From an uncultured Muribaculaceae bacterium (lineage in GTDB: Bacteria > Bacillota_I > Bacilli_A > RF39 > UBA660), in contig CAZRJK010000008.1 in the NCBI GenBank assembly GCA_964600615.1, positions 32 through 64,031 on the forward strand: a DNA stretch of 64,000 bases, written 5' to 3'. Below the pieces are notes generated by a model. That model was not told the DNA's origin, did not search any database, and saw only the letters and a list, made by a program, of their open reading frames with translations. Positions 31,810-50,765 of the stretch are shown here, piece after piece. Both the position numbers and the translations under genes were made by a program. The stretch's first letter is position 1, and each line of letters starts with the position of its first letter.

Positions 31810-33024
31810 TTATTTTATATAATTTTTTAGTTCTTTTATACTTTTATTATTTCTTGCTTGGTTTTTTATTTTTCTTAAAGCTTTTTTTTCTATTGCGTTT
31901 ATTCTTTGGTGACTAATATTATATATTTTACTAATTTCTTTAGTAGTGTATTGCTTGTTATTCTCAGTTCCTATACCAAATCTTAATTTTAGTATATTGA
32001 TTTCTCTTTCTGATAAATAATCAAAGACTATTTTTATTTCGTCCTTTAATTCATTTTTTATTATATAATCTTCTATATTAGTATTTTTATCTTCTATAAA
32101 ATCTTCTAGAGTAGTATTTTCTCCTGGTTCATTTTTTTCTTTTATATTTGCGTTTAGTGATAGAGTTTTATTATATTGTAAATATTTTGTTATTGTATTA
32201 TAATTCATATTAAATATTTGAATTAGTTCTAATGCAGTATATTTTTTGTTGTTTTCTTTTTCTAATTGTTCTACTTGTTTTCTAAATTTTTTAATATTAT
32301 ATATTTCATTTTGGTTGACTGTTATATTATCATTATATTTATATGTATATACTGTTATTGCTTGTCTTATCCAGTGAGTGGCATAAGTAGAAAATTTGTA
32401 TCCTTTTTTTATATCAAATTTTTCTATTGCACGCATTAATGCTATATTTCCTTCATTTATTAAATCCATAATATCATTTTCTTTAGTTTTATATTTTTTG
32501 GCTATATATACTACTAATTTAAGATTGGCATTAATTAATTCTTTTCTAGCATTTAGATATTCTAAATATAGTTTAAGGTTTTCAAGTAATAATTTTTTTT
32601 CTATTATTGGTTCATCTTCATAATTAATTTTATATTTATCTATTAATACTTTTTTATCATCATTGTTTTCAATATTTAGAATGTATTCATTTATATTTAT
32701 TTTTGTTTGATAATTTAAGGCATTTTTTACTAATTTTATTAATTCTTTATCGTTTCTATATGTAATTAAATTCTTTGTTAGTAATGGTATATTTAGTGGT
32801 TTTATATTTTGTCCTTTTAAGGCTATTATACAGTCATTACTTTTTAATATTGTTTTAGCTAATTCTTGTTCTTCTTCTATTGTTAATAAAGGTATTGGTT
32901 TTATTTCTGCTATGTATGATTTAAAATTATCTTTAATAAAATCATTATCTTCTTTTATATTATTTGAGAAGTATTCTATTATTTCTTCTTTTTTTATTTC
33001 TTCTTCTAGTATTTCTTGTTTCAT
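31810..33024 (-). CDS. Sigma-70 family sigma factor, RpoD-like architecture with a divergent region 2.4-3 and an insertion between regions 1.2 and 2
   Basis: DLINEGNIALMRAIEKFDIKKGYKFSTYATHWIRQAIT (region 2); region 4 ISKIYNISHQRINAIEKKALRKIK. Confidence 0.85.
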   Translation of the reverse strand: MKQEILEEEIKKEEIIEYFSNNIKEDNDFIKDNFKSYIAEIKPIPLLTIEEEQELAKTILKSNDCIIALKGQNIKPLNIPLLTKNLITYRNDKELIKLVKNALNYQTKININEYILNIENNDDKKVLIDKYKINYEDEPIIEKKLLLENLKLYLEYLNARKELINANLKLVVYIAKKYKTKENDIMDLINEGNIALMRAIEKFDIKKGYKFSTYATHWIRQAITVYTYKYNDNITVNQNEIYNIKKFRKQVEQLEKENNKKYTALELIQIFNMNYNTITKYLQYNKTLSLNANIKEKNEPGENTTLEDFIEDKNTNIEDYIIKNELKDEIKIVFDYLSEREINILKLRFGIGTENNKQYTTKEISKIYNISHQRINAIEKKALRKIKNQARNNKSIKELKNYIK

Positions 33025-33164
33025 AGTTTTCCCCCTTTAAACGTTTTAATATTTTAACATATATGTAACAATTTTGCAAGTGGTGTATTATTTTGACCTT
33101 TATGTTGTAAGTTTGTTTAAACTATGGTATACTAATCAATGGTAATATGGTAGGAGGTATGTAT

Positions 33165-34142
33165 ATGTTTTGTCCTAAATGTGGTGAGCATAATGCTGAG
33201 GGGTCTGGTTTTTGTACTAAGTGTGGCAATAATCTTAGTAATGTTTTAAATAATGAATCTGTTCAAAATGTAGATTCTACTAATTTGGCAACTGATAATG
33301 ATAATTCTAGTGTTAGTAGTGAACCTATACAAAGTAATGTTAATCATGATATGAATGATAACAAGAAATCTAATCTTATACCAATTATTGTTATAGTTTT
33401 AGTTGTTGCTGCTGGTATTTTTTTTGGTATTAGTAAATTAGTGAAAAAAGATAATTCTAGTACTAACAGTGATATGAAGCAAAATACTAGTAGTGAGGTT
33501 GATACTAATGTAGATAATGATAGTTCTAATAGTAATCAATCTACTATTGATGGTTCTACTGATACGACTTATGATAAAAATGGTGACTTTTTAATGTCTG
33601 TTGAGGATGTTTTTTCTATTTCTGGAAAAGGAACTGTTGCTACTGGTAGAGTTTTGAGGGGAACTGTTAAGGTTGGCGATAAGGTTCAAGTTATTGGGCT
33701 TGATCATGAAATTATAACTACTGAAGTTGTAGATATACAAGCTTTTAGGCAATCTATGGAATATGCGGATGCTGGTAATGATGCTGGTTTATATTTGAAA
33801 GATGTTGAAAGAGATGATGTTGTAAGAGGGCAAGTTCTTGCTAAACCTAATTCGATTAAAGCTTATAAAAAGTTTGATGCAGATATATATTTTTATTCTA
33901 CTAAGGAAGGTGGTAGGGCTACAGCATTTTTTGCTAATTATAGACCACAATTTTGTTTTAGAACGGCTGTGATTGCTGGTGGCATTACTTTACCTAGTGG
34001 TGTTGAAATGGTAAATCCTGGAACTAATATAAAATTAACAGTAGAATTAGAAGTTGATGTTGCTATGGAAGTTGGAGATATATTTGATGTTAGAGATACT
34101 GGTAGAACCGCTGGCAAAGGTACTGTTACAAAGATATATTAA
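33165..34142 (+). CDS. Zinc-ribbon + single TM + EF-Tu domain II/III protein (no GTPase domain)
   Basis: N-terminal CPKCG...CTKCG, [20 protein letters not shown], and an S/N/D-rich linker. The C-terminal ~185 aa are collinear with EF-Tu domains II-III ([22 protein letters not shown]...RGQVLAKP...YRPQFCFRT...[12 protein letters not shown]). Start is at ATG 33165, 7 nt after AGGAGG. Confidence 0.85.
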   Translation: [325 protein letters not shown]

Positions 34143-34148
34143 ATTTTT

Positions 34149-34178
34149 AGATAAGTATTGATTTACTTATCTTTTTTG
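34149..34178 (+). terminator. Rho-independent terminator
   Basis: agataagta / tacttatct 9-bp stem followed by a T run. Confidence 0.75.
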
Positions 34179-35473: not shown

Positions 35474-36592
35474 ATGTTAGTTGGTATTTGTGAGAATCCT
35501 TTTGTTTTGAAAATTTTATTATTTATTGGGAAGCTTGTTAAGATTTGTTATTTGGTTATTCCTATTGGATTAGTAATTTTTTTTAGTTTTGATTTTTTTA
35601 AAGGAATTATTAATCAGGAAGAAGCTGATAAACAAATTGTTTTTTCATTGAAAAAAATAATTAATGTTGTTGCTTTGTTTTTGGTTCCTACATTTGTTAG
35701 TATTTTTATGAAATTTATTAGTAATATAGAATTTTTAGATATTAATTATAAAACTTGTTTAGCTAATACTTCTAATATTACTTATTATGAGGAAAAGTAT
35801 GAATCTTTAATTAAATTAGAAGAAGAAAAAAGAGCAGAAGAAATAGAAAAGCAATTAGCCGATTATGAGTATTATAAAACACTTGATAGAAGGAAAAAAA
35901 TGTTTGTTAAATATAATGAGAAGAAAGATAACAATGGTGGAAATAATACTGGAGGCAATACTTATGATCCTAGTGCTGTTTTTACTGGACAAACATATAG
36001 TTTAAGTGCTGATGAATTAAAAAACATAACTGCTGTATGTATTGGTGAACAGGGAGCATATGTTGATGGTGTTTCTTCGGAAGCTTCTTTTATGGCTAAT
36101 ACTTATGAAGCTAAATATTCTAATAAATTTTCAACGATTTCAAGCTGGGTACTTGATACTGGGGATGGACATTATTTTGATACTCGTTCTTATGAAAATG
36201 GTTTACCCCAAGTTACTGATGAGTTGATTAATGCGGTTAAAGAAGTTTTAGTTAATGGTAATAGGACTTTACCTTTATATGTTGATGATCATGATTGTTG
36301 GTTTTGTTCTGATCATTATGATAGGAATCATAATCCACTTTATTGCCATAATGGTAATAAGGGTGATATATGTTATTTAAATAATGGTGGTTCTGATTTA
36401 TCTAGTAAGGATGAGATTACTAATAGAGATAATTATATAAAGGATAAGACTAAAATATATACTTATTATAAGCAAGATCATAGTGATGATTTGGATAAGT
36501 ACTTTATTTTTTATGCTTGGGCTAGACCTACTACGAAGGGTGGGGATCCTTTTGGGTATACTGAAGATACTTATAAGCGTATAAATGGTTAG
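35474..36592 (+). CDS. Membrane protein: conserved N-terminal 2-TM module + coiled linker + Cys/His-rich C-terminal domain (paralog A)
   Basis: Same N-terminal module as the 24195 product. The C-terminal domain has GEQG...EASFMANTYE and LVNGNRTLPLYVDDHDCWFC motifs shared with paralog B. Confidence 0.8.
   Translation: MLVGICENPFVLKILLFIGKLVKICYLVIPIGLVIFFSFDFFKGIINQEEADKQIVFSLKKIINVVALFLVPTFVSIFMKFISNIEFLDINYKTCLANTSNITYYEEKYESLIKLEEEKRAEEIEKQLADYEYYKTLDRRKKMFVKYNEKKDNNGGNNTGGNTYDPSAVFTGQTYSLSADELKNITAVCIGEQGAYVDGVSSEASFMANTYEAKYSNKFSTISSWVLDTGDGHYFDTRSYENGLPQVTDELINAVKEVLVNGNRTLPLYVDDHDCWFCSDHYDRNHNPLYCHNGNKGDICYLNNGGSDLSSKDEITNRDNYIKDKTKIYTYYKQDHSDDLDKYFIFYAWARPTTKGGDPFGYTEDTYKRING
35822..35986 (+). 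repeat. Near-identical block shared with 37009-37173 (linker region of the tandem paralogs)
   Basis: Hand alignment gives roughly 155/165 identical, including a 68-nt perfect run (gattatgagtattataaaacacttgatagaaggaaaaaaatgtttgttaaatataatgagaagaaaga). The flanking parts of the genes are clearly more diverged. Confidence 0.85.
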
Positions 36593-36656: not shown

Positions 36657-37757
36657 ATGATTGTTGGTGCTTGTGAAAATCCTTTTGTTTTAAAGATTTT
36701 GTTATTTATGGGAAAAATTGTTGAGGTTTGTTATTTGATTATTCCTATTGGTTTGATTCTTTTTATGAGTATTGATTTTTTTAAGGCAATTATTAATAAA
36801 GAAGAAGAAGGAACTAAGAATGTTATTTTTTCTTTTAAGAGAATTGTTAACGTTGTTGCTTTATTTTTGGTTCCTACTTTTATAAGCTTTTTTATGGATT
36901 TTGTTAGTAATTTAGATTTGTTTAATGGAGATTATGCTTCTTGTTTAGCTAATACTTCTAGTGTTACTTATTATCAAGAGAAGTATGATGCCTTGGTTAA
37001 ACAAGAGGAAGAAAAAAGAGCAAAAGAGATAGAAAAGCAATTAGCTGATTATGAGTATTATAAAACACTTGATAGAAGGAAAAAAATGTTTGTTAAATAT
37101 AATGAGAAGAAAGACAACGATGGTGGCAATAATACTGGAGGCAATACTTATAATCCTGATGCTGTTTTTACGGGCCAAACTTATAATTTAACTGATGAAC
37201 AGGTAAAGAGATTAGCTGCTATATGTTATGGTGAAAAAGGAAATAATGTAAAGGCAGTAGCTGCAGAGGCTACAATGATGGCCAATATATACGAGGATCG
37301 TGGGAATAAGAATTATTCTTTATATGATTGGGCTCTTCTACCAGTTGGCGATGGTGGTTGGTATGCTTCAAGCAGTAGGGATAGTAGTAATATAGCTAAA
37401 GTTACTGATGAGTTATTTAATGCGGTTAAAGATGTTTTAGTTAATGGTAATAGGACTTTGCCTTTATATATAGATGATCATGATTGTTTGTTTTGCGATG
37501 ATTCCACTTGTTCAAATGGTAATAGGGGCGATGTATGTTATTTAGATACTAATGGGACTATTTTTTCTGATGAATCTCAATTAAAGGATAGATATAATTC
37601 AACTATCTATATTCCTAATAAGACAAAAGTATATACTCTTAGTAAGTTGAGAAATAGTGTTGCTAGTGAGCGATATTTTGTATTTTATACTTTTGTATCT
37701 GATAATAGTGGTCCTGTTGGGTATACTGAGAAGAGTTATAAAAGAGTAAATGGTTAG
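36657..37757 (+). CDS. Membrane protein, tandem paralog B of the 35474 gene
   Basis: Collinear with paralog A over its whole length; similar promoter/SD context (tataat...gtgagggata). Confidence 0.8.
   Translation: MIVGACENPFVLKILLFMGKIVEVCYLIIPIGLILFMSIDFFKAIINKEEEGTKNVIFSFKRIVNVVALFLVPTFISFFMDFVSNLDLFNGDYASCLANTSSVTYYQEKYDALVKQEEEKRAKEIEKQLADYEYYKTLDRRKKMFVKYNEKKDNDGGNNTGGNTYNPDAVFTGQTYNLTDEQVKRLAAICYGEKGNNVKAVAAEATMMANIYEDRGNKNYSLYDWALLPVGDGGWYASSSRDSSNIAKVTDELFNAVKDVLVNGNRTLPLYIDDHDCLFCDDSTCSNGNRGDVCYLDTNGTIFSDESQLKDRYNSTIYIPNKTKVYTLSKLRNSVASERYFVFYTFVSDNSGPVGYTEKSYKRVNG
37009..37173 (+). repeat. Second copy of the near-identical paralog block (see 35822-35986)
   Basis: Direct comparison of the two gene sequences. 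Confidence 0.85.
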
Positions 37758-40248: not shown

Positions 40249-41496
40249 ATGTGCATAATGAGGAAGATTTATTTTGTGTTTATATTGATATTATATTTTT
40301 TTAATATAAGTATTATTAATGCTGTTGATATTAGTAAGGCATATGATTATAGTTATGAAGAAGTTAATGTTGATATTACTAGTAAACATGTTATGTTATA
40401 TAATTTAACGGATAATTATAAGCTATTAGATATAAATGGTAATGAGAAGGTACAGATAGCTAGTTTAACTAAGATTATGACTAGTATAGTTGCAATTGAA
40501 AATATTAAGAATTTGGATGATAAAGTAACTATTAAGAGTAATGTATTTAATGGTATTAGTGAATATTCTAAAGCAGGTTTTAATGTAGGTAATAAAGTTA
40601 GTTATAGGGATTTATTATATGGAATAATGCTTCCTAGTGGTGCTGATGCTGTTAGGGCGATAATTCTTAATATTAGTGATAGTGAAGATAAGTTTATAGA
40701 ACTTATGAATAATAAAGCTAAGGAATTAGGGCTTACTAATACTCATTTTGATAATGGAATTGGAATGGATTCTAAAGATAATTATTCTACTGCTAGTGAT
40801 ATGGCTGTTATATTAAATTATGCTTTGGAAAATGAAGAGTTTAAGAAAATATTTACAACTAAGAAATATACTGTTGATTCTGTTGGTTTAAAATTTGAGA
40901 GTACTCTTAGTTTATATGGTGGTAATATGGATACTAGTTTTATTAATGGTTCTAAGAGTGGTTTTACTGATGGTGCTGGAGTATGTTTAGCTTCTATTGC
41001 TAGTGTTAATGATGTTGATTATTTGCTTATAGTATTAGGGTCTAATGCTAAGAATAGGTCAAATGCTGTTAGGGATAGTGTTGATATATATAATTATTTT
41101 GGTAAGAATTATAGTTATAAGGTATTGTTGGATAAAAATCATGTTATTAAGAAAATTAAGGTTAAATGGGGTAAGAAGAAAACTTATGATATAAAAGTAT
41201 CTAATGATATTAAGAAATATGTTAAGAATAATGTTAGTGATGATGATTTAAAATATGTTTATGATGGTATTGAGGAATTAAAATATAGTATAAAGAAGGG
41301 CAGTAAGTTGGGTAAGGTTGATGTTATATATAAGGGTAAAGTTATTGGTAGTGAGGATATTTATTTAAATGAGGAACTTAAATATTATCATCCTGTTGTA
41401 TATGGAATTATGATTCTCTCTTTTGTTGCTATGATTAGTTCTTTAGTTAGTATAAAGAAGCAAAAGAGAAAGAAAAGAAAGAAAAAGAAGAAATAG
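40249..41496 (+). CDS. Serine-type D-Ala-D-Ala carboxypeptidase (PBP5/DacB-like) with a C-terminal TM and poly-Lys tail
   Basis: SLTKIMT (SxxK) active-site motif, signal sequence, and a C-terminal anchor followed by KKQKRKKRKKKKK. The start could also be the ATG at 40258. Confidence 0.85.
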   Translation: MCIMRKIYFVFILILYFFNISIINAVDISKAYDYSYEEVNVDITSKHVMLYNLTDNYKLLDINGNEKVQIASLTKIMTSIVAIENIKNLDDKVTIKSNVFNGISEYSKAGFNVGNKVSYRDLLYGIMLPSGADAVRAIILNISDSEDKFIELMNNKAKELGLTNTHFDNGIGMDSKDNYSTASDMAVILNYALENEEFKKIFTTKKYTVDSVGLKFESTLSLYGGNMDTSFINGSKSGFTDGAGVCLASIASVNDVDYLLIVLGSNAKNRSNAVRDSVDIYNYFGKNYSYKVLLDKNHVIKKIKVKWGKKKTYDIKVSNDIKKYVKNNVSDDDLKYVYDGIEELKYSIKKGSKLGKVDVIYKGKVIGSEDIYLNEELKYYHPVVYGIMILSFVAMISSLVSIKKQKRKKRKKKKK

Positions 41497-48368: not shown

Positions 48369-50765
48369 ATGATGAGTGATATAAAACAAATTAAAAATAT
48401 TGATGTTAAACAAATTGCTTTGAGTGAAGATGCTGTGGCAAAAGGAGACTTTGTTAAAAGTGAAAAAGTTAAAACGAAATTTTGGGGCGATAACGGTACT
48501 ATATTAGAAGCTGTTCCTAAAGAAGTTAATGGTAAAACTGTATATAGAGTAGATGAAATTTTATTTGATGATAATGGGCGAGAAGTAAAGAGAGTTGGAA
48601 TGGGATTTACTACTAAGGAAGCAGTAGAGGCTAATATGGTAACAGATGGTAATAAGTCTAATAAGGGAAATTCTCCTAAAATTGAAATGTATACTGATAG
48701 TGGAACAGGGATTAAAAATAAAGAAAGTTCTAATGATGATGCTGCTGGTGGTGTTTCTAATTCTCCTACTGCTATTCCAGACGCTTCTACTGTAGAAGAG
48801 AAGAGTTCAGGTAGTATTTCTTCAGATGTTTTTCCTAAGCAAATTGGTGATAGACACTTTGTTGCTGCTTATGCTGGAGAAAGTGGTGAATTGGTTGGTT
48901 GTTATGATGATGGTTCTATGATAACTTATGTAGATGGAAAACTTCATAATATTTCCTTTGCTGAAAAAGAGCCTGATTCTACTAAATCTTCTGAACTTGA
49001 ATATGGACCAATGTTTGAAACTGCTGATCCTTTTTCTAATGTTGCTAACATGAATAATTTTTGGAAATTGGATGTAAATTCAACTATTAATTCTACATCA
49101 AATGCTGCTTCTAGTTCTGATGTTTTGTCTAATGCTTCTGATGAATTTAGCCAAAATATGGATTCAACTTCTGCAACTGCTTTAGGTATTGGTACTGCAG
49201 ATGCTTTAGATTTTGCTGCTACTACTGGTAAGGCGGCAGCAGATGCTGCAATGAATAAAATCAGCGGCTTAAAAGATGATATTGTTAGAGCGGCAGCTGA
49301 AGCTGCAATAGATGAAACTAGTGGGGTAAAAGATGTTATTGCTTTGTCTGATTATTTTAAGGATGAGCCGGTAAAAAGTGGCAATGTATTTAATTTCGCA
49401 TCTACTGATTTTCCAAAACCTAATGAGCAGACAGTTGAAGATGTAGCTAGGTATAATAAATATATGTCTGATATATATTTTGCTTTAAAGAATACAAACT
49501 TATTTAGTCCTGCTCAAATAGCTGGAATAATGGCCAATATGAAGGATGAAACTAATTCATATTTTAATCCTGGTACTAATTATGAACGAGTAGGTAGTGA
49601 TGATCCAGCATATAAAGATTTGTATTTTTATGATGCTAAGACTGGTAAAAAAATTGATTTAGATTTATCTTCTTCTGGTGCTGTGTCTAGAGCGCTTGCA
49701 AGTCGTGGTATACCTTCTAAAGGGGGAATAGGAATAATACAATGGACTGGTGATAGAAAAGATAAATATGTAGCTTGGTGTAATGAAAATGGTTACGAAT
49801 GGGATGATATTAATCATCAAGTTGAATATTTTGCTAAGGAATATACTTCTGATGAATGGAGTGAATTTAGAAAAAAATTTGAAAAAACACGATCTTCAAA
49901 AGAAGCAGCTAGAGTTTTTTGCGCTGATTTTGAAAAACCTAAAAATTCAAGTGGTGTTGGAGAAGAAAGAGCTGCTGATAGTGATAAATTTTATGATGCT
50001 ATTCTTGCATTTGAAGAAAAGGAAGGTTCGGGAAGAGCAGTGTTAAAGCCTGGTGCTGCTAAGGGATTAAGAGATAATACTAGTGCTGCAGTTGATAAGG
50101 TTTCTCATATACCTGATAATTGTGGAATAGCAGATGTAGAAAATTCTTCTAGTGATTATTATTTTCCAGATAATGGTGGAAATAATAAAGTGCCTCAATT
50201 TTTTCAAGGTCATGATTCTTCATGGGCTAATGTGCGATTTGGGGACCATACTTTGGCTAAGTCTGGTTGCTCAGTTGTTTCGTTTGCGATGAATCTTTCA
50301 TTTTGGGGAATAGGTAATAAGGGTTTTACTTTTCCTGATGATGTTGTACAAAAAATAATTGATGAAACTAGTTCACGATTTACGTATCATGTAAAGGATG
50401 TTGGTGCTGATTCAGCTAGTTTATTTCCTAAGCTTGCTGAATGGTATAATATGGATTATGCGGTATTATCTAAAAATAATGGTGATTCTGTAGTGAAATC
50501 TTTAAAAGATGGAAAACCTATTGTAGCACATTGTAGCCGTGGTTCATTTACTACTAAGGGTCATTTTATTGTTTTAACTGGTGTTACTGATGATGGTAAG
50601 ATTGTTATTAATGATCCTAATTATAATAATTATACTGGTAACAGAGATTATGTATCAACTAAAGATTATACATTTGATGAGTTAGTTAATATGGGTGTTG
50701 ATAAATTTTGGCAATTTACACCTAAAAATATGGATAGGAAAGGAGTAGCAGATTATGAACAATAA
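48369..50765 (+). CDS. Large signal-less protein: S/A-rich N-terminal half + phage-tail-lysozyme-like domain + C39-like cysteine peptidase domain
   Basis: AGIMANMKDETNSYFNP...GIGIIQWTGDRKDKYVAWC...QVEYFAKEY (lysozyme-like). QGHDSSWANVRFG...KSGCSVVSFAMNL...GHFIVLTGV...INDPN (C39_2-like). No signal peptide or TM. Confidence 0.8.
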   Translation: MMSDIKQIKNIDVKQIALSEDAVAKGDFVKSEKVKTKFWGDNGTILEAVPKEVNGKTVYRVDEILFDDNGREVKRVGMGFTTKEAVEANMVTDGNKSNKGNSPKIEMYTDSGTGIKNKESSNDDAAGGVSNSPTAIPDASTVEEKSSGSISSDVFPKQIGDRHFVAAYAGESGELVGCYDDGSMITYVDGKLHNISFAEKEPDSTKSSELEYGPMFETADPFSNVANMNNFWKLDVNSTINSTSNAASSSDVLSNASDEFSQNMDSTSATALGIGTADALDFAATTGKAAADAAMNKISGLKDDIVRAAAEAAIDETSGVKDVIALSDYFKDEPVKSGNVFNFASTDFPKPNEQTVEDVARYNKYMSDIYFALKNTNLFSPAQIAGIMANMKDETNSYFNPGTNYERVGSDDPAYKDLYFYDAKTGKKIDLDLSSSGAVSRALASRGIPSKGGIGIIQWTGDRKDKYVAWCNENGYEWDDINHQVEYFAKEYTSDEWSEFRKKFEKTRSSKEAARVFCADFEKPKNSSGVGEERAADSDKFYDAILAFEEKEGSGRAVLKPGAAKGLRDNTSAAVDKVSHIPDNCGIADVENSSSDYYFPDNGGNNKVPQFFQGHDSSWANVRFGDHTLAKSGCSVVSFAMNLSFWGIGNKGFTFPDDVVQKIIDETSSRFTYHVKDVGADSASLFPKLAEWYNMDYAVLSKNNGDSVVKSLKDGKPIVAHCSRGSFTTKGHFIVLTGVTDDGKIVINDPNYNNYTGNRDYVSTKDYTFDELVNMGVDKFWQFTPKNMDRKGVADYEQ

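Follow-up and report, generated by a model that had tools for sequence, protein, structure and literature searches.

Elongation factor Tu (EF-Tu) is a textbook moonlighting protein that has repeatedly been found on bacterial surfaces without an export signal, and whether this location is functional or accidental has been argued over for two decades. Here, we describe a gene located at positions 33165-34142 (+ strand) of a 64-kb stretch of DNA from an uncultured bacterium (contig CAZRJK010000008.1; 64,000 nucleotides, hereafter the window). It encodes a protein, P0001, made of a zinc ribbon, a single transmembrane (TM) helix, a stalk, and the second and third domains of EF-Tu (D2 and D3), and has no GTP-binding G domain. 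P0001 belongs to an undescribed family of uncultured gut Bacilli, in which known domains form an exported pseudo-factor of a new architecture. Literature searches revealed no account of an EF-Tu paralogue that lacks the G domain or is anchored in the membrane, and family members are named only 'hypothetical protein' or 'translation elongation factor TU' (JGI), in agreement with the original prediction, made from the DNA alone, which knew of no described family with this architecture.

Canonical EF-Tu is the closest described protein: the D2-D3 regions are collinear, align without gaps and superpose with a root-mean-square deviation (rmsd) of about 1 Å, and the family branches from the tufs of Bacilli. 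P0001 differs from it in that a zinc ribbon, a TM helix and a stalk replace the N-terminal 200 residues, and in its predicted extracytoplasmic location. Moonlighting surface EF-Tu, as described in Mycoplasma pneumoniae, Mycoplasma hyopneumoniae, and Lactobacillus, likewise places EF-Tu sequence outside the membrane, and cleavage products at the surface, with portions of EF-Tu missing, have been reported to bind ligands (PMC6822514). However, moonlighting EF-Tu is the ordinary, leaderless tuf product, whose export route is unknown, whereas P0001 is a separate anchored paralogue without a G domain.

EF-Tu also serves as a docking site in biological conflicts involving CdiA-CT(NC101), Avs7, the T4 major capsid protein (MCP)/Lit, and thiopeptides. 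The same beta-barrels are involved, mostly through the D2 face that carries the acceptor-end pocket, but the partner bound there is the real cytoplasmic EF-Tu, while P0001 is a separate exported copy with an altered pocket. EF-Tu domains have been reported in the caspase-based 'System 4', a membrane-associated conflict system of actinobacteria (Kaur et al. 2020, PMC7159879). The likeness lies in the use of EF-Tu-derived domains outside translation, and one high-GC relative, P0314, adjoins a caspase-nSTAND-WD40 gene; in System 4, however, the EF-Tu domain is located C-terminal to the caspase and is paired with EACC1, and P0001 differs in lineage (low-GC gut Bacilli) and in anchor. A Pfam scan detected no caspase domain in P0001 or in the 10 neighbouring genes covered by it.

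The overall plan of P0001 resembles that of the Zn_Ribbon_1-TM-exported-domain proteins of Firmicutes, of which we take Staphylococcus aureus TcaA to be an example. These share a Cys4 ribbon, a low-complexity spacer, one TM helix, and an extracytoplasmic C-terminal domain, but an exported domain consisting of EF-Tu D2-D3 is unreported for the class. Finally, the LanI-type immunity proteins NisI and SpaI are anchored proteins or lipoproteins that bind incoming bacteriocins. Like the members of the present family, they are small, non-enzymatic binders at the outer face of the Gram-positive membrane and exist in lipoprotein and TM versions. YknW, a Yip1-family protein, takes part in protection against the SDP toxin (PMC4887032), and Yip1-family genes occur in the recurrent operons that contain D2-D3 genes. 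LanI proteins nevertheless have no sequence or fold relation to P0001 and no linked bacteriocin cluster was found; they are used here as a working analogy only.

The gene and its parts were located as follows (pLDDT, predicted local distance difference test):
33105-33133 (+): promoter-like TTGTAA-17-TATACT with an upstream TG; 9/12 consensus positions, candidate only
33152-33157 (+): Shine-Dalgarno (SD) sequence AGGAGG, read from the sequence, 7 nt 5' of the ATG at 33165
33165-34142 (+): coding sequence of P0001, the tethered EF-Tu D2-D3 protein; 325 aa plus stop codon
33165-33236 (+): Cys4 zinc ribbon, predicted cytoplasmic; aa 1-24, with C3, C6, C17, and C20
33237-33374 (+): disordered N/S/D-rich spacer, predicted cytoplasmic; aa 25-70; pLDDT < 50 for residues 31-71
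33375-33434 (+): single TM helix; aa 71-90; hydropathy score 3.06; helix at 72-87 in the structural model
33435-33572 (+): disordered N/S/T/D-rich stalk; aa 91-136 (46 aa); pLDDT < 50 for residues 87-127
33573-33851 (+): EF-Tu domain II beta-barrel; aa 137-229; Pfam GTP_EFTU_D2; pLDDT ~95
33852-34139 (+): EF-Tu domain III beta-barrel; aa 230-325; C-terminus GKGTVTKIY; Pfam GTP_EFTU_D3
34149-34178 (+): intrinsic-terminator-like hairpin followed by U6; 9-bp stem AGAUAAGUA / UACUUAUCU with a 6-nt loop, the hairpin itself at 34149-34172

Pfam identified GTP_EFTU_D3 (PF03143) at aa 230-324 (E = 2.6e-24; 86 bits versus a cut-off of 27) and GTP_EFTU_D2 (PF03144) at aa 156-226 (E = 1.1e-13; 51.8 bits versus a cut-off of 30.3), with no match in P0001 to the G domain GTP_EFTU (PF00009). 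The N-terminus (aa 2-24) matched Zn_Ribbon_1 (PF13240) with 28.1 bits, above the gathering cut-off of 25, and is thus a member of that Pfam family. The NCBIfam EF-Tu models (TIGR00485, NF000766, and NF009373) aligned to P0001 only at model positions ~205-394, with scores below their cut-offs (229.2 versus 449, 225.1 versus 452, and 221.7 versus 522.4). Having no G domain and scoring under these cut-offs, P0001 is not an EF-Tu proper. The best EF-Tu match among the sequences of the Protein Data Bank had an E-value of 1.3e-58, and P0001 aligned without gaps to residues 216-403 of Thermus aquaticus (Taq) EF-Tu, each P0001 residue number being the Taq number minus 79. Identity over D2-D3 was ~52% to T. 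aquaticus EF-Tu and 56% to the tufs of Bacillaceae; on average, P0001 was 55% identical to tufs and 56% to the tethered family, of which it is a divergent member.

In the AlphaFold2 model of P0001, pLDDT was ~80 for the zinc ribbon and ~95 for D2-D3, residues 31-71 and 87-127 were disordered, and a helix was present at residues 72-87. Foldseek superposed the model on EF-Tu structures with an rmsd of ~1.0 Å across 191 columns, and the template-modelling score relative to 5i4q_C, a chain consisting of D2-D3 only, was 0.95. The collinearity of the C-terminal part with EF-Tu domains II and III had been proposed in the original prediction from three peptide strings, all of which occur verbatim in the translation, and it is borne out by the Pfam domains, the gapless Taq alignment, and the superposition. 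The proposed succession of zinc ribbon, TM helix, stalk, D2, and D3 is one on which Pfam, hydropathy, and AlphaFold2 agree. The checks suggested at that time included a profile search for D2 and D3 without GTP_EFTU, a comparison of a model with EF-Tu, and a search for the same architecture in other genomes; at least 75 clusters were found to combine an anchor, a stalk, and D2-D3. When the 64-kb window was searched by tblastn with a tuf protein and with tethered G domains, no G-domain remnant was found anywhere. Since it has no G domain, P0001 cannot bind GTP or deliver tRNA to ribosomes, and it would function as a passive, non-enzymatic binding head, the binding itself being predicted.

The reading frame was open from 33147 to the stop codon at 34140-34142; within it, the ATG at 33165 was the start that fits the SD sequence, and it also agreed with the N-termini of homologues (MFCP.C...). 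The spacer sequence of P0001 was not conserved within the tethered EF-Tu family. A Shine-Dalgarno sequence, a promoter and a terminator had all been attributed to the gene; the first and the last stand, whereas promoter-like matches in this AT-rich region were not significantly enriched over shuffled sequences (10 found versus 7.4 expected), and the match at 33105-33133 is therefore not evidence of a promoter. The terminator-like hairpin had a folding energy of -9.2 kcal/mol (z = -3.99); the scarcity of G-C pairs in its stem explains why a consensus terminator scan missed it. No leader RNA was detected with Rfam between 32800 and 34400. The gene was identical at the DNA level across 12 contigs from several metagenome samples.

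To delimit the family, we used a single-sequence search, which returned ~30 clusters of 250-350 aa with D2 and D3 but no G domain. Anchored D2-D3-only members scored 217-347 bits in this search, versus at most 217 bits for intact full-length tufs; P0009 and P0027, two EF-Tu entries with internally duplicated segments, also exceeded 217 bits. With a family profile (A2) built from 19 D2-D3-only clusters, ~75 clusters (90% identity) scored 325-520 bits, versus at most 323 bits for canonical tufs. P0001 scored 444 bits with this profile, a value that is partly circular, as P0001 itself is included in it. Further members, beyond these ~75 clusters, were found in an exhaustive HMMER search of 1.84 billion representatives.

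Essentially all complete low-GC members had one hydrophobic helix or a lipobox before D2. The helix was preceded by a Cys4 zinc ribbon as in P0001 (~20 clusters), by a Q/N-rich tail starting with MNQNNNIIGYDSQTGQPI or ..YNFDPMTGQPI (~45 clusters), or by a few residues only, as a bare signal anchor (P0017 and P0152); a lipoprotein signal was found at least five times. Among the 61 scored members, the stalk had a median length of 48 aa (range 24-233) and contained 23% Asn. P0001 follows this plan, its TM helix (aa 71-90) and stalk (aa 91-136) lying directly before D2. The family signature comprised KPNSI (KPGSI in tuf), a D2 start of the G219/A220 type, Q254, T264, and the C-terminus GxGT(V/I)TK(V/I)Y; P0001 has KPNSI, Q254, T264, and GKGTVTKIY, and D replaces A at position 220.

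Members named 'hypothetical protein' came from metagenome-assembled genomes (MAGs) labelled Bacilli or Firmicutes bacterium, and wherever the sample name of a low-GC member was informative, the source was a gut or rumen metagenome. At least 8 family loci were found by scanning GTDB representatives with the degenerate pattern GQV.A.KPNSI...F.A, a scan that gives an incomplete taxonomic census. These loci belonged to MAGs labelled uncultured Bacilli, Bacillales, Tenericutes, Clostridia, and, in one case, Lachnospiraceae; of the at least 120 pattern matches, most of those listed were ordinary tufs with KPNS (Pirellula, Magnetococcales, and others).

The ratio of non-synonymous to synonymous substitution rates (dN/dS) was 0.10 (L008/L069) and 0.17 (L032/L039) for unsaturated ortholog pairs, and ranged from 0.13 to 0.39 for the other ortholog pairs listed. 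The family is under clear purifying selection, although this selection is weaker than expected for tuf. For the P0001 gene itself, the 12 contigs are identical and dS to other members (0.7-2.1) is near saturation, so that the ratios given are those of its relatives. In a neighbour-joining tree of D2-D3, the family, including forms that bear a G domain, was monophyletic with long branches and emerged from Bacilli-type tufs; P0166 grouped with P0001 and P0016, and the branch order within the family was not resolved. The I225, T230, and V238 states of the family are shared with metagenomic tufs of 389/394 aa, which were the best tuf matches of P0168. Identity of the family to tuf D2-D3 was 45-71%, while Firmicutes tufs are at least ~75% identical to each other across D2-D3; judging from these sequences, the family evolves much faster than tuf.

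Duplications of the head were observed behind the same anchors, in the arrangements (D2-D3)x2, D2-D3-D2, D2-D3-D3, and D2-D2-D3 (P0312, P0357, P0322, P0438, P0399, and P0019). A tandem second D2-D3 copy of 225 aa, with a linker of only ~10 aa, was present at L013 6941-7618 (dN/dS of 0.58 versus copy 1); at L012 6941-7685, the match of the second copy was split with a gap, suggesting disruption.

Some relatives have kept a G domain. P0168 (495 aa, two samples; L138 5709-7196) and P0193 (529 aa) consist of a Q/N-rich anchor, a stalk, and a complete EF-Tu, and an NCBIfam EF-Tu model covered the anchored full-length form at positions 4-392 with 461 bits. Both retain the P-loop, NKCD (SKCD in P0193), and SAL, but the switch-I motif RGITI has become VGVKY and DCPGH has become DLSSH or DLLSH, with loss of the switch-I Thr and of the DxxG Gly. 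P0168 was located in the same Yip1/WG/Zn-ribbon operon as D2-D3-only forms. In P0437, the anchored G domain has no P-loop. Furthermore, an intact gene encoding a 410-aa protein (L140 215-1447, also present in L141) was found 16 nt upstream of the gene encoding P0166, a zinc ribbon-TM-D2-D3 protein (L140 1463-2440). The 410-aa protein has a zinc ribbon, a TM helix, and a G domain (Pfam, 88 bits) that keeps DxxG and has lost NKxD and SAL; it has no D2, and its tail appears D3-like by eye, with a marginal tblastn similarity to the D3 of the family (E = 0.01). A tRNA-like sequence was also noticed by eye at L140 1-75.

The earlier statement that no GTPase domain is present is thus correct for P0001 but not for the family, as P0168, P0193, and P0437 keep decaying tethered G domains. 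Different G motifs have been lost in each lineage, which resembles neutral decay of nucleotide binding and would fit a compartment free of GTP. The existence of tethered relatives with decaying G motifs indicates that a complete EF-Tu joined to an anchor was the starting point of the family; the most economical history, as read from the sequences, would be a tuf duplication, a fusion to an envelope anchor, and loss of the G domain in most lines. These relatives provide a natural series in which a GTPase turns into a pseudo-enzyme.

With regard to topology, the EF-Tu head of P0001 most likely hangs on the outer face of the membrane, as a predicted extracytoplasmic domain. Lipoprotein signals, in five independent variants, were identified in P0019 (...SFATGC), L052 (...GAVGC), P0334 (...LIGC), P0348 (...FSGC), and P0353 (...MTGC). 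The 61 TM-anchored members had a mean net charge of +2.9 in the 12 residues before the helix and +0.2 in the 12 residues after it, and an N-in charge bias was observed for 53 of them. Taken together with the VWA, TSP3, and WG-repeat proteins encoded in the same operons, these features indicate that the head faces outward. In addition, given what is known of membrane insertion in general, export of the 70 N-terminal residues, which include a Cys4 ribbon but lack a signal peptide, is implausible. A homologous head is fused in one high-GC protein to PASTA, a cell-wall-binding domain (PMC7159879), which was counted toward an outside location. A caveat applies to P0001 itself. Its net flanking charge was 0 N-terminal and +2 C-terminal to the helix, making it one of four members that point the opposite way; with such ambiguous charges, homology and the zinc ribbon are the basis of its predicted orientation. 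Topology is a prediction for P0001 as for the family.

A PBP5-type D-Ala-D-Ala carboxypeptidase is encoded in the window (40249-41496), which implies that the organism has a peptidoglycan wall. With such a wall and a 46-aa stalk, the head would be unlikely to reach beyond the wall, and the boundary between membrane and wall is a more probable site for it than the exposed surface of the cell; the lipoprotein forms and the ~10-aa linker of the second copy in L013 are also signs of a membrane-proximal position. Display outside the membrane, as had been proposed at the outset, is hence supported by the lipoprotein variants, the charge bias and the domains of the operon partners, but exposure at the cell surface is improbable.

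A copy of tuf on bona fide anchors, purifying selection, and loss of the GTPase together argue for a function of D2-D3 outside the cell on which selection can act. The tethered family would be a genetically hard-wired export of a "cytoplasmic" translation factor, and its defined head of 190 residues is a tractable handle for finding this extracytoplasmic function.

To determine which parts of the head have been kept, we compared 72 family members with 100 tufs at the 108 positions that are invariant in at least 97% of tufs. On average, the family retained 74.5% of these positions, and P0001 kept 73 of the 108. Retention was 87.5% in the acceptor-end/aminoacyl pocket (E226, D227, F229, I231, V237, T239, E271, F273, R274, N285, and L289; Taq numbering) and 84% for contacts with the 5'-end and T-stem, versus 68% for the other non-Gly/Pro invariant positions; the 20 tRNA-contact residues are those that we take to be contacts in the 1TTT complex. 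Changed positions included K219, M223, P224, R241, E243, K275, L277, R291/G292 (to K/D), H313, M363, D366/N367, and I375, and several of them went from hydrophobic to polar. They may represent the former interface with the G domain, now exposed to solvent, a suggestion made from the alignment rather than from three-dimensional mapping. Other residues were conserved specifically in the family, such as N308 (99%), Q254 (99%), T264 (97%), T401 (100%), K402, and the C-terminal Tyr, and would point to constraints of its own. The head was slightly more acidic than that of tuf, with a net charge of -5.7 versus -3.9. The tRNA T-stem motifs GGRHTPFF and REGG were destroyed in P0168, P0193, P0175, P0019, and P0029.

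As a function, we tentatively favour, with less than even confidence and ahead of an adhesin, that of a membrane-proximal EF-Tu mimic or decoy. The gene encodes a single-pass membrane protein: the zinc ribbon and the spacer at its N-terminus are predicted to remain cytoplasmic, and the D2-D3 head most likely hangs from its ~46-aa stalk on the outer side of the membrane, beneath the wall of peptidoglycan. The head would show the domain-II/III ligand face of EF-Tu just outside the membrane, where it could capture or titrate an incoming agent that recognises EF-Tu domain II. Candidate agents would be a toxin used between bacteria, part of a phage, or an antibiotic that targets EF-Tu, by analogy with membrane-anchored or lipoprotein immunity proteins, which catch bacteriocins before they reach their target. 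The origin of the family as a whole tethered EF-Tu, the preferential retention of the ligand face, and the membrane-proximal position were counted in favour of a mimic, as was the conflict-type setting seen elsewhere, in which exported PASTA-bL12-D2-D3 protein P0314 adjoins a caspase-nSTAND-WD40 gene and EF-Tu domains are known from a caspase conflict system (PMC7159879). Agents recognising these domains exist: CdiA-CT(NC101) binds EF-Tu domain 2 exclusively (PMC5737660), domains II and III mediate the binding of EF-Tu by Avs7, and T4 MCP also binds EF-Tu (PMC13581612). Complexes with GE2270A and thiomuracin (1d8t, 2c77, and 5jbq) were among the Foldseek matches of the P0001 model. A thiopeptide sponge was considered for P0001 and is weakened as a candidate, since its G257-equivalent is an Asp and three other pocket residues differ, the residues in question being those that we presume to contact thiopeptides or to give resistance to them.

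Several points weigh against a mimic. The excess of retained contact residues is modest, concerns 20 residues and may reflect structural constraint, so that it is suggestive only. The pocket of P0001 is remodelled (G269D, E271Q, N285D, and L289Y, as well as H331A, T350A, E390D, and G391T; Taq numbering), and canonical EF-Tu ligands may therefore not fit. The 45-71% identity to tuf D2-D3 is low for a mimic, and the operon partners look more like surface-interaction proteins. To our knowledge, all D2 binders described so far act in the cytoplasm, and we know of no extracellular EF-Tu-directed agent for Gram-positive bacteria. None of the low-GC members was found linked to a toxin or bacteriocin, to a thiopeptide cluster, to a prophage, or to a defence gene of known type. 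PADLOC gave no match for P0001, P0168, or the operon partners. PHROGs gave only N-terminal zinc-ribbon/TM matches of unknown function for P0001, and none for the neighbours of a lipoprotein variant, and BFVD returned only giant-virus translation GTPases. By tblastn, matches in phage records covered D2-D3 only, with tuf-level identity, and the annotated ones were tuf genes, which is consistent with host tuf DNA in these records. If the mimic reading is true, it would represent a new principle of resistance or immunity, in which a target that drugs or toxins attack inside the cell has a decoy outside it, with relevance to EF-Tu-directed antibiotics and interbacterial toxins.

Exported D2-D3 heads were also observed in high-GC bacteria unrelated to the low-GC gut Bacilli. 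P0314 (L142 8001-10448) is a lipoprotein with bL12 C-terminal domains (Ribosomal_L12, 174 bits), two D2-D3 units, and PASTA, and P0329 (L143 8001-10250) is a signal-peptide protein with bL12 C-terminal domains (Ribosomal_L12, 84 bits) and two D2-D3 units. The P0314 gene is located 15 nt downstream of the caspase-nSTAND-WD40 gene (1822 aa; L142 2518-7986), and the P0329 gene has a Peptidase_C25-PKD gene on one side and, on the other, a Peptidase_C10 gene located two genes downstream. A further high-GC lipoprotein, P0439, has D2-D3 only. The bL12/PASTA fusions of other phyla hint at a theme that extends beyond one lineage. It is possible, though doubtful at this stage, that tethered EF-Tu and the high-GC combinations of D2-D3, bL12, and PASTA form an unrecognised envelope class of exported pseudo-translation factors, which would protect by target mimicry, intercepting toxins, parts of phages, or antibiotics directed at the translation machinery while these are still outside the membrane.

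In at least five lineages (L008/9, L012/13, L014/L089, L032, and L138/9), the D2-D3 gene was the last gene of a recurrent operon, unannotated and conserved in gut Bacilli:
L008 1-5983: envelope operon
L012 44-5988: envelope operon
L014 1-5976: envelope operon
L138 426-5681: envelope operon
The first gene encodes a Zn-ribbon-Yip1 protein and the second an N-anchored WG-repeat protein or an unannotated protein of 581-586 aa. The third, large gene encodes either a Zn-ribbon-TM-TSP3-VWA protein (~950 aa) or a Zn-ribbon-TM protein of 820-829 aa (with an HExxH motif in L014), and the product of the fourth, small gene is either a lipoprotein or a 190-aa multi-TM protein that has a zinc ribbon at its C-terminus. 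The D2-D3 gene follows after 12-25 nt. The large partners, of 500-950 aa, are predicted to be exported, and the operon neighbours share an interchangeable cassette consisting of a cytoplasmic Zn-ribbon or Q/N-rich tail and a TM helix; for example, the N-terminus of the 581-aa protein of L014 is nearly identical to that of P0028. This shared cassette makes the EF-Tu head one of several C-terminal exported domains carried by a common anchor. Homologues of the operon partners were not found in the window, and the family genes of L010, L016, L005, L052, and L087 also lie outside the recurrent operon. At L098 (72-4404, - strand), a D2-D3 gene was observed upstream of genes encoding an SPFH/Band_7-SHOCT protein, a multi-zinc-ribbon protein, and a Zn-ribbon-Yip1 protein, an arrangement which, we presume, resembles membrane-stress clusters of the pspA-ydjGHI type.

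These operons bear directly on the possibility, somewhat less probable in our opinion than a mimic, that the head is an adhesin, a hard-wired form of moonlighting in which it would bind ligands of the host or of neighbouring cells (fibronectin, mucin, or plasminogen) together with the VWA/TSP3/WG-repeat partners. The position of the gene at the end of such operons and the gut or rumen source of informative samples argue for an adhesin, as do the tandem (D2-D3)x2, D2-D3-D2, and D2-D2-D3 variants, which would give avidity, and the faster evolution of the family relative to tuf. In M. pneumoniae EF-Tu, fibronectin binding maps to aa 192-292 and 314-394, i.e., to D2 and D3, but positively charged motifs have been proposed for EF-Tu adhesion (PMC6822514), whereas the present head is more acidic than tuf. 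The wall of the organism, the ~46-aa stalk, the lipoprotein forms, and the variant with a ~10-aa linker would place the head under or within the wall, and there is neither an LPXTG motif nor a long stalk. An adhesin would also leave the preferential retention of tRNA-contact residues unexplained; the high-GC exported homologues combine D2-D3 with bL12 and PASTA rather than with adhesin domains, and the P0001 gene itself is outside the VWA operon.

The same operons could be read as those of an extracytoplasmic holdase or assembly factor, comparable by analogy to PrsA, that would serve the large exported VWA, WG-repeat, and HExxH partners. Chaperone-like activity has been reported for EF-Tu in vitro, and PrsA is a lipoprotein foldase. 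The terminal position of the gene, 12-25 nt behind genes for such large proteins, the membrane-proximal location, and the anchor cassette common to the operon members would suit this role. However, the P0001 gene and those of L010, L016, L005, L052, and L087 are not in the operon, and chaperone activity of D2-D3 alone would rest on analogy; we consider this role unlikely.

The region upstream of the P0001 gene contained a divergent gene, which stands alone on the minus strand amid a plus-strand region:
31810-33024 (-): sigma-70-family protein of 404 aa with regions 1.2, 2, and 4; 140 nt from the P0001 gene, divergent
A ligand signal from the head could then be imagined to pass through the TM helix to the zinc ribbon, which would hold this sigma factor, and the plan of zinc ribbon, TM helix, and exported domain indeed resembles that of anti-sigma factors. 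The neighbour scored below every NCBIfam cut-off (best models of MzaA-type and RpoD, ~188 bits) and, with its region 1.2, looks like an RpoD/SigA-type protein rather than an ECF (extracytoplasmic function) or SigI type. No anti-sigma domain was found in P0001 by Pfam, the zinc ribbon is absent from most members, the lipoprotein forms leave no cytoplasmic domain at all, and, among the loci compared, the divergent sigma gene was present only in the strain of the window. The link with this sigma factor was dropped on these grounds, and, with a ribbon that is dispensable in most members, the sensor role listed in the original prediction now seems very improbable.

An inverted topology (N-out, C-in), in which D2-D3 at the cytoplasmic face would bind aminoacyl-tRNA, EF-Ts, or ribosomes, for instance to localise or sequester them, appears equally improbable. 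The flanking charges of P0001 slightly favour it, the family has preserved tRNA-contact residues fairly well, and some G-domain-bearing relatives retain the P-loop. It would nevertheless require export of the 70-aa Cys4 segment without a signal peptide, against the N-in bias of 53 of the 61 members and against the at least five lipoprotein variants and the high-GC PASTA fusion, which place homologous heads outside; the lineage-specific decay of the G motifs and the destroyed T-stem motifs also argue against it. Lastly, that P0001 is a pseudogene or a rearrangement fragment of tuf with no function of its own, as the presence of only part of EF-Tu and of a G-domain gene directly upstream of the L140 relative could suggest (an adjacent G domain, named beforehand as a sign of a pseudogene, does literally exist near P0166, in the nearest clade, but it belongs to an intact gene whose product has a separate zinc ribbon and TM helix), is rejected as having practically no chance of being true, because the ORF (open reading frame) is intact with an SD sequence and a terminator and identical in 12 contigs, more than 75 clusters share the anchored plan with dN/dS of 0.10-0.17 in unsaturated pairs, and N308, Q254, T264, and T401 are conserved family-wide. 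The probability left over by these readings and by the mimic would go to some other ligand.

In the window, the P0001 gene stands alone. Upstream of it are gltX, a CobW-family gene, and the divergent RpoD-like sigma gene, and downstream are an F420-ligase-family gene, two paralogous unannotated membrane proteins, tadA, and a ZIP transporter; this context was not conserved at the other family loci examined. The two tandem paralogues (35474-36592 and 36657-37757; 372 and 366 aa) have an N-terminal TM region, a coiled-coil segment, and a Cys-rich C-terminal domain, and neither Pfam nor NCBIfam gave a match for them. Only a 160-aa gene was called in L002 at the position of the second one, which points to strain variation. 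No canonical tuf gene was present in the 64-kb window, and a gene that by eye appears to encode EF-Ts (tsf) was observed at 579-1451, 32 kb from the D2-D3 gene. A 798-aa protein with Phage_lysozyme2 and Peptidase_C39_2 domains is encoded at 48369-50765.

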